From Enterobacteria phage ECP2307: DNA of 64,000 bases. Positions 62,820 through 64,000 of this stretch are shown in pieces. Location: sequence record PP461118.1. One strand, written 5' to 3'. The number at the start of each line of letters is the position of its first letter. The first letter of the stretch is position 1. The notes below the pieces were generated by a model. It made no database searches. It was not told the origin of the DNA and saw only the letters and a list, made by a program, of their open reading frames with translations. The translations under genes and the position numbers were made by a program.

Positions 62820-64000
62820 TAAAATTTTATCGGTTGTCCCAACCTCTGGGTCACCATCATATGTGAATAAAATATCTACCCTTCTTAACAACCTTCTTAA
62901 GCTTACTCTCTATATATATATATAGTTATATAGTACTATATAGTATCTTAGTATCTATCTAGTGGTCTTAATAGCCCATCTGTATAGCCCTTCTAAATAG
63001 CCCTCTAACAAGCCTTCTAACAAGCCTTCTAACAAGCCTTCTAACAAGCCTTCTTAACAACCTATACAATCACCTTAACCATCTCTCTATACCCTCTTAG
63101 AAGCTCCTATACACCTCTTAATCTCTAGGTTAGCTATGTTACCCTCTATAGGTGTTCACTAGGTATTACTAAGCCTCTATATAGGCTGTTTTAACAAACT
63201 TAACAGGAATATCTTTACAGACCTTATCTCACAAGGTCTAACACGGTATTAACAAGGTATCTTATAAGCCTGTTTATGCCTGTATTTTTAGAAGACTGTC
63301 TAGGTAATTATTCAGAATTTTAAAATTTTTATAAAATAGGACTATCAAGTCATTTTTTAGGGTCTTTGAAGGAACTCAAAAATATCTGTAGAAGATGTAT
63401 ATCTGCTTGGTAGCCCTTAACATCCCTGTAACATCCCCTTTGCAGAATTTTAAAATATCATTAACAATCTCTTAACAGCTACTACAACCTCTTAACATCT
63501 CTTCAGGGGTCTTAACAGATTCTTAACAAAACTAACAAGGCTGTAACAAGTTCTTAACAGTTGCTACATGGTCTTTACAGAACCTTAACAGATGACTAAC
63601 AAGAGCTAACAAGTTAATTTTTAAGAGTTATTTTGTTAAGATAATTAACAAGTTCCTAACAAGTATTTAATCTTTTTAACAAGCTATTAACACGGTCACT
63701 ATCTCTTTTCTTATCGTTCCCTCTCTTTCTTAGTGATTCTCTAAATAGCCCTTTTAAAAGCTCTCTATAGCTCCTTGTAAGCTCTTTTAAGCCTCTTCCT
63801 AGTAATTACACCCCCAACTATACAGACACCTATTTATAAGGCTTTACAGGAGCTTTAAAGGCTATGTCAAAGACTCTTACAAGGCTTTTACGTGGTTTTA
63901 ACAGAGATTTAACAAGGGGCTAACAAGTTGCTAACAAATGCCTTAAAAGCATAACTATGTAGGGATTGTTAAGAAATTGTTAAGAAAATGTTAAGGGGGC
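62820..64000. repeat. non-coding repeat-rich region (candidate origin / genome terminus), continues past window end
   Basis: No ORF of 60 aa or more on either strand; AT-rich tract (ATATATATATATAGTTATATAGTACTATATAG), three ATAGCCC motifs, and more than 25 copies of (C)TAACA(A/G) / CTTAACAG. Confidence 0.6.
63005..63052. repeat. 4 x 12-bp perfect tandem repeat CTAACAAGCCTT
   Basis: Copies start at 63005, 63017, 63029 and 63041, followed by a degenerate fifth copy. Confidence 0.8.

Follow-up and report, generated by a model that had tools for sequence, protein, structure and literature searches.

The window, by which is meant the whole 64,000-nucleotide stretch of DNA that was analysed, ends on its right-hand side in a long non-coding region, as outlined in Table 1. 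The last gene of the rightward gene block lies at 62183-62776, and no ORF of at least 60 aa appears beyond it in the ORF listing. Between 62777 and 64000 the longest stop-free stretch in any frame is 49 aa, in line with an earlier note on this DNA that had described more than 1.1 kb free of ORFs of that size. A rho-independent terminator, annotated as such in AYO145A and conserved in the alignment of relatives, closes the gene block. The region matches 255 phage records, nearly all of which are Felixounavirus or other Ounavirinae, and phage P54, at 96%, matches best. Judged by its sequence, the source phage of the window is a Felixounavirus, that is, a Felix O1-like phage. In its relatives, two gene blocks converge on a non-coding stretch of ~1.65 kb, of which the window covers the first 1.2 kb. 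The large terminase gene lies 16 kb away, in a flank that is 95-99% identical to Felixounavirus records. Between it and the gene for a vWFA / 'RNA-binding' protein (53042-54457) are 23 tRNA genes on the minus strand (47702-52876), an arrangement typical of Felixounavirus.

Table 1. Features of the right-hand end of the window, together with the large terminase gene. In the left boundary block a slash marks the position of the cut.
Feature	Position	Strand	Evidence or remarks
Large terminase subunit	45651..47267	-	phrog_979, E=1e-233; Pfam Terminase_6N and Terminase_6C
Rho-independent terminator	62785..62810	+	stem-loop and T-run
Unique non-coding 'pre-DTR' flank	62816..63408	.	no ORF; conserved blocks, TA-rich tract, three ATAGCCC, 10 TAACA
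12-bp tandem array, CCTTCTAACAAG / CTAACAAGCCTT units	62989..63060	+	Tandem Repeats Finder: period 12, 5.9 copies, 91% matches
Left boundary block of the DTR, TGTATATCTGCTT/GGTAGCCCT	63396..63417	+	invariant in 12 of 12 aligned phages, three genera
Short direct terminal repeat (DTR), very probable right-hand copy, 592 bp	63409..64000	+	homology to annotated DTRs; record ends
Main array, 17 direct TAACA, typically (C/T)TTAACA(A/G) or CTAACAAG	63418..63692	+	helical phase
Four direct TAACA at exact 11-bp spacing near the right DTR edge	63899..63936	+	motif positions, alignment
Right-edge block: three inverted TGTTAAG units (63967, 63978, 63989; 11-bp spacing), then terminal ...GTTAAGGGGGC	63965..64000	-	motif scan

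Searches for other kinds of element returned little. An Rfam scan of the whole window found tRNAs only, with zero matches in 62777-64000. A promoter scan of the region gave 7 promoter-like sites where 6.3 were expected, which is no excess, and a recurrent promoter-like motif (TTTATAAAAT and similar) has only three occurrences in the window. The main text of the PhageMaP paper on Bas63, a Felixounavirus, is silent on the non-coding region. Several records annotate ORFs of 25-50 aa within the repeat and its flank, including UAB_69 gp027/028, E9 CDS0001-0004, SeKF_63 CDS0001-0003 and LMP25. These small 'hypothetical proteins' are probably spurious, because the insertions and deletions found here measure 11 or 22 bp and conservation is centred on the motifs described below. 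Two database entries carry anomalies. The record of P54, the closest relative (PV390658.1), carries a taxonomy line that reads Tequatrovirus (Straboviridae), yet the phage is a Felixounavirus. The other, the 147-kb 'Staphylococcus phage SA1' record (GU169904.1), includes the entire DTR of a Felixounavirus (87% identity), so that its assembly may well be chimeric or contaminated.

The last 592 bp of the window are almost certainly a DTR, and base 64000 the right-hand physical terminus of the virion DNA, a reading drawn from homology to relatives and from the exact coincidence of the window end with theirs. The earlier note had suggested aligning the region with related genomes to see whether it is a terminal repeat, and annotated repeats do align. 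The 618-bp DTR annotated in the Salmonella phage UAB_69 matches window 63407-64000 plus 2 nt past the window end, over its full length and at 90% identity. UAB_69 was used in place of its sister UAB_Phi87, whose GenBank record is not ordered by physical ends. The 581-bp 'short direct terminal repeat region' annotated at the start of the Pr103Blw record aligns to 63409-64000. The last base of the window is also the terminal base of the end-ordered records of Pr103Blw, E9 and SeKF_63, all of which close with ...ATGTTAAGGGGGC, and the first base of pEP20, which opens with GGTAGCCCTTAACA, corresponds to window position 63409. The SeKF_63 record begins and ends with an exact 613-bp copy, whose boundaries are those of the DTR of the window. 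At least 80% of the DTR is covered by 245 of 254 records, and sequence identity within the genus is 87-96%. The window itself holds no second copy of the DTR. The chance that a randomly placed window end would hit a physical end to the base is about 1 in 10^5, so the window is almost certainly the last 64 kb of an end-ordered record.

Direct terminal repeats of this length are already known for the genus, and the reading of the region as a genome terminus is correct in this respect, with published DTRs of 581-613 bp. For UAB_Phi87, Bal31 digestion together with run-off sequencing gave a DTR of 608 bp (PMC4837284), and PhageTerm gave 581 bp for Pr103Blw (PMC8303462) and 613 bp for Ro111lw (PMC6454146). 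For relatives, PhageTerm is also reported to show a doubling of read coverage and read starts that peak sharply at the boundaries (PMC8303462, PMC6454146, PMC11737134). Short DTRs have been suggested for the Erwinia Kolesnikviruses (PMC11984208), and for Felix O1 short terminal repeats were already inferred by Whichard et al. (PMC3185647). The DTRs of UAB_Phi87, Ro111lw, Pr103Blw, UAB_69 and M7 resemble that of the window in homologous sequence, boundaries, location between convergent gene blocks, length class and terminal base. The DTR of the window does not differ in any essential way from those of other Felixounaviruses and has its own length of 592 bp and its own pattern of gained and lost 11- and 22-bp units. 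The finding therefore opens no new class of system. The earlier note had placed the whole repeat-rich region in a possible terminal repeat. This holds for 63409-64000, but the AT-rich tract, the three ATAGCCC motifs and the 12-bp tandem repeat that it listed all lie in the unique flank outside the DTR.

The best-conserved parts of the whole region are the two blocks where the ends are cut, with 22 invariant columns at ~63396-63417 and near-invariant sequence at ~63965-64000 and just beyond. The left-edge cut separates 63408 from 63409, although run-off sequencing puts it 2 nt further to the left. This edge is supported by pEP20, which starts with GGTAGCCC, and by the annotated DTRs of Pr103Blw and UAB_69, which start at the same block. 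At the right edge, nine phages share the pattern TTGTTAAGA..TTGTTAAGA.AATGTxAAGGGGGCTA almost without variation. Erwinia phage M7, a Kolesnikvirus, has a left junction TGTATATCTAC/TTAGTGGCC that is homologous to TGTATATCTGC(TT)/GGTAGCC in the window, and its right edge, ...AAATGTAAAAGTGGCTAA, is homologous to ...AAATGTTAAGGGGGC(TA). Small differences in placement exist between records. In UAB_69 and M7, which are run-off-sequenced or older records, both edges lie 2-3 nt further out than in the read-based Pr103Blw, E9, SeKF_63 and pEP20, and the end of the KMM2 record lies 11 nt further inward.

Some further features of the edges can be described. A 14-bp direct repeat without mismatches, CAGAATTTTAAAAT, has one copy on each side of the left boundary, starting 96 bp outside (63313-63326) and 34 bp inside (63443-63456) the DTR. 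In P54, whose sequence continues past the point where the window ends, the right DTR edge ATGTTAAGGGGGCTA (2214-2228 of the P54 segment) is followed after 50 nt by its inverted counterpart, TAGCCCCTATAACAT (2279-2293). The loop between them holds two TTTACGTAACTTT repeats, the DNA fold has z=-3.2, and the same element recurs a third time as the left DTR edge GGTAGCCCTTAACAT. A functional hairpin at the right edge was considered and rejected, as the distal arm is degenerate in Mooglevirus and Suspvirus with no compensating changes. A symmetric-cut model, based on the element TAGCCC(CC)TTAACAT present at both edges, was likewise unsupported since the two cut positions are 4 nt apart relative to the element.

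The flank that precedes the DTR contains conserved blocks with up to 0.93 identity to Mooglevirus and Suspvirus, as well as the other repeats that had been reported from the sequence alone, each of which is found as described. The AT-rich tract occupies 62901-62965 and has 25% GC, compared with 39% for the window. Three ATAGCCC motifs follow at 62971, 62984 and 62997, with 13-bp spacing (the units span 62971-63003), and a fourth copy is present at 63745. The perfect 4 x 12-bp tandem consists of CTAACAAGCCTT at 63005, 63017, 63029 and 63041, thus filling 63005-63052. Among close relatives its copy number ranges from 1 to 4, with alignment gaps of 12, 24 or 36 bp, and it behaves as a variable-number repeat that lies outside the DTR. 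In M7, the flank before its DTR copy (2040-2450 of the M7 segment) is packed with (C/T)TTCTAA(G/A) units, whose core is shared with the CCTTCTAA part of the 12-bp tandem in the window. This suggests a second, flank-specific class of motif that is conserved across Ounavirinae.

The most abundant repeat is the pentamer TAACA. Between 62777 and 64000 it occurs 31 times on the plus strand and 5 times on the minus strand, while dinucleotide-preserving shuffles of the region give an expected 2.76 +/- 1.62, and the highest count among 1000 shuffles is 9, against the 31 observed. Its density is 25/kb in the region versus 1.7/kb in the rest of the window. The earlier note had counted more than 25 dispersed (C)TAACA(A/G) motifs and had pointed to their directionality. 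The count is borne out, with 26 of the 31 plus-strand copies reading TAACA[AG]. The directionality is real too, except that the units at 63634, 63967, 63978 and 63989 are inverted. The DTR alone has 21 direct copies and four inverted ones, the latter being the TGTTAAG units at these four positions. The only other local cluster of TAACA in the window is a mini-array of three units at 11-bp spacing, TTAACAccatctTAACAatcagtCAACAAG, at 24331-24365. It lies directly after the stop of a 792-aa minus-strand ORF, in a gap on which two gene blocks converge.

What the earlier note had overlooked is that the TAACA sites are spaced helically. Successive gaps measure 11 bp in 12 of 30 cases, and pairwise distances peak at 11, 20-22, 31, 42, 51-53, 62 and so on. 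The 21 direct sites of the DTR are phase-coherent over its 592 bp with a period of 10.45 bp (R=0.72), a value reached by none of 2000 random position sets. A similar period of 10.40 bp (R=0.80) is found for the array of the Mooglevirus Michonne. As 10.45 bp is the helical repeat of B-DNA, the TAACA sites all face one side of the helix.

Conservation was compared in an alignment of 12 phages from Felixounavirus, Mooglevirus and Suspvirus. Within the DTR, the columns of the TAACA cores are 97.7% identical to the window compared with 85.8% for the other DTR columns (permutation p<2e-4). In the same 12-phage alignment, the TAACA cores of the flank are no better conserved than their surroundings. 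Most units of the main array are kept in 9-11 of 11 relatives and three are kept in 6-8. For the group of four near the right edge, units 1-3 are kept in all 11, and unit 4 lies within an 11-bp indel. All four indels of more than 1 bp in the DTR measure 11, 11, 22 and 22 bp, none of them a multiple of three. Whole units are thus gained or lost while the phase is kept. The earlier note had reasoned that an absence of the repeats from close relatives would count against its reading, and relatives in four genera keep them. M7 is a case in point. Its exact 444-bp DTR aligns to the window over 86 bp only, at 73%, and it nonetheless contains 13 TAACA followed by 7 TGTTA, many of them at 11-bp spacing.

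To look beyond these relatives, a viral collection was scanned with four TAACA at 11-bp spacing as the query. Matches outside Ounavirinae are mostly plain 11-bp tandem repeats, and arrays of at least 19 units occur in Ounavirinae only. One match comes from an unrelated lineage, a phi29-like contig of 14.1 kb (IMGVR_UViG_3300021400_002676, with the same sequence in a second contig) that encodes a protein-primed DNA polymerase B, a Phi29-type capsid, a connector and a gp16-like ATPase. Its inverted terminal repeats of ~95 bp (1-100 and 14006-14105) are built of (T)GTAACA(T/A) units at ~11-bp spacing, a hint that other phage genome ends share the design. No description of the phased TAACA architecture was found in the searchable literature. 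The papers on the DTRs of relatives give length and position and do not mention it (PMC4837284, PMC8303462, PMC6454146). This conserved arrangement of TAACA in helical phase adds a modest new detail to the picture of these genome ends.

Taken on its own, the TAACA array is likely to be a platform that has been selected for protein binding, as far as sequence can tell. Which protein it serves is a more difficult matter. The most plausible role for its putative partner lies in the packaging or terminus-generating machinery, an assignment that we make tentatively and with slightly less than even confidence. Sites for a packaging protein were among the possibilities that the earlier note had raised. 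For the region as a whole, we lean towards a right-end DTR that carries a TAACA platform for terminus generation or packaging as the best explanation. The large terminase is the enzyme expected to cut the DTR boundaries, and the TerL of this lineage is reported to cluster with a DTR group (PMC4837284). In exact-DTR phages such as T7, one DTR is present per concatemer junction, and the repeat is duplicated as the terminase cuts and packages (PMC5000459). By extension from these phages, we infer that the replicating concatemers of the present phage would hold a single copy of the DTR between successive genomes. The terminase would cut at the conserved boundaries, on the left at ...TATCTGCTT/GGTAGCCC and on the right at ...GTTAAGGGGGC/TAGC, with the invariant blocks presumably specifying the cuts. 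Packaging would then duplicate the DTR such that both virion ends carry a copy. The 21 direct TAACA, closed by the three inverted units at the right edge, could act as a docking platform for a multimeric DNA-binding protein arranged head to tail. Such a protein would mark the junction and position the cuts, and would be the putative small-terminase-like recognition factor of the lineage.

Candidates for this factor were sought among the genes at hand. A small terminase subunit is not annotated in any relative. Searches of PHROGs and Pfam with the genes flanking the region and with the ORF upstream of TerL returned no function, and neither a small terminase nor a DNA-binding domain. Among eight proteins scanned against Pfam, the sole recognisable DNA-binding protein is an HTH_3 protein (20762-21091), which has no link to the region. 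A bolder form of the packaging reading would see the ~590-bp Ounavirinae DTR as a one-faced array of more than 20 TAACA with a 10.45-bp phase, unit-wise gain and loss and a flip at the right edge, which nucleates a head-to-tail filament of a candidate phage protein. We regard this form as speculative and somewhat improbable.

Known systems can help to place the proposed mechanism. The T7 concatemer junction would be the closest mechanistic model by analogy. When the T7 ends are joined, 13 CCTAAAG are found in the 160-bp DTR and its flanks, so that in T7 as in the window a short oriented motif is repeated many times through the repeat and its surroundings. An exact short DTR, site-specific cuts and duplication during packaging would likewise be common to both. 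However, T7 belongs to an unrelated lineage with a different motif and a different terminase family (that of the window is Terminase_6). The DTR of the window is ~4x longer than that of T7 and shows a strict helical phase across the repeat with a flip in orientation at the right edge, and its flanks carry terminators whereas the T7 ends are adjoined by promoters. Two other kinds of array offer partial parallels. Pho boxes, the sites of PhoB/OmpR-type winged-helix regulators, are head-to-tail operator arrays with a periodicity of 10-11 bp. Like the window, they have direct repeats of a 5-7 bp core, spaced one to a helical turn, and this spacing implies that binding is cooperative and on one face. 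Recognition sites of small terminases include the R sites of lambda cosB and the hexamer clusters of P1 pac, and here, as in the window, clusters of a short unit flank a cleavage point. The Pho-box, cosB and pac examples have 2-7 units compared with more than 20 over 590 bp in the window, and the likeness implies no homology.

Binding of the array by an architectural or end-handling protein outside the terminase, whether from the phage or the host, is the alternative that survives best, and we consider it unlikely. Such a protein might coat or shield the leading DNA as it enters the cell, pair the two DTRs so that the genome circularises or concatemers form, or pause ejection as at the T5 injection stop region. 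The phasing on one face over ~590 bp and the head-to-tail orientation would suit a filament or a wrapped nucleoprotein complex, the array fills the whole repeat in place of clustering at the cut sites, and the small terminase subunit is not recognisable. However, the eight proteins scanned against Pfam provide no candidate for this role either, the HTH_3 protein included, and conservation is highest in the two cut-site blocks, which links the region to the making of the ends.

A replication origin has to be considered next, in which the 12-bp tandem or the TAACA would be initiator iterons and the TA-rich tracts an unwinding element. Such an origin could coexist with the DTR, and we judge it distinctly improbable. 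Its appeal comes from an origin-like layout of tandem repeats adjoining a tract of 25% GC, from a transcriptionally quiet position between convergent gene blocks, and from the phi29-like contig, whose similar phased array forms inverted terminal repeats, the site of the origins in such phages. Against this, the number of tandem copies varies among close relatives as described above. DnaA boxes are at chance level, with one 1-mismatch site, and window-wide counts fall below the shuffle mean. The flanking genes show no signature of an initiator or helicase loader in PHROGs or Pfam, the GC skew follows gene orientation with no independent switch, and a literature search found no paper on a Felixounavirus origin. 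The earlier suggestion of iterons for an initiator thus finds no positive support, lacking an excess of DnaA boxes, an adjacent initiator-like gene and a stable number of tandem copies. That the repeats are neutral by-products of slippage in dispensable DNA, or that the region encodes small proteins, is hardly credible: the 12-bp tandem does resemble a slippage-prone repeat of variable copy number and small 'hypothetical proteins' have been annotated, but the motif cores are far better conserved than the spacers, phase is kept over 590 bp, the indels are multiples of 11 and not of 3, the motif persists in M7 despite the loss of alignability, and no stop-free stretch exceeds 49 aa. Core conservation, phasing, indel sizes and the shortness of the stop-free stretches exclude neutral slippage or coding for the DTR array, and slippage stays a fair account of nothing but the varying number of 12-bp tandem copies.

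Felix O1-like phages are widely used in the typing and biocontrol of Salmonella and E. coli. Once 63409-64000 is recognised as the terminal repeat, the points at which this genome truly starts and ends are fixed. If the filament reading is true, it would represent a new kind of packaging-recognition or end complex, in a lineage that has no recognisable small terminase. In either case, the array is a defined DNA bait and mutational target with which the packaging recognition subunit of these phages may be found.
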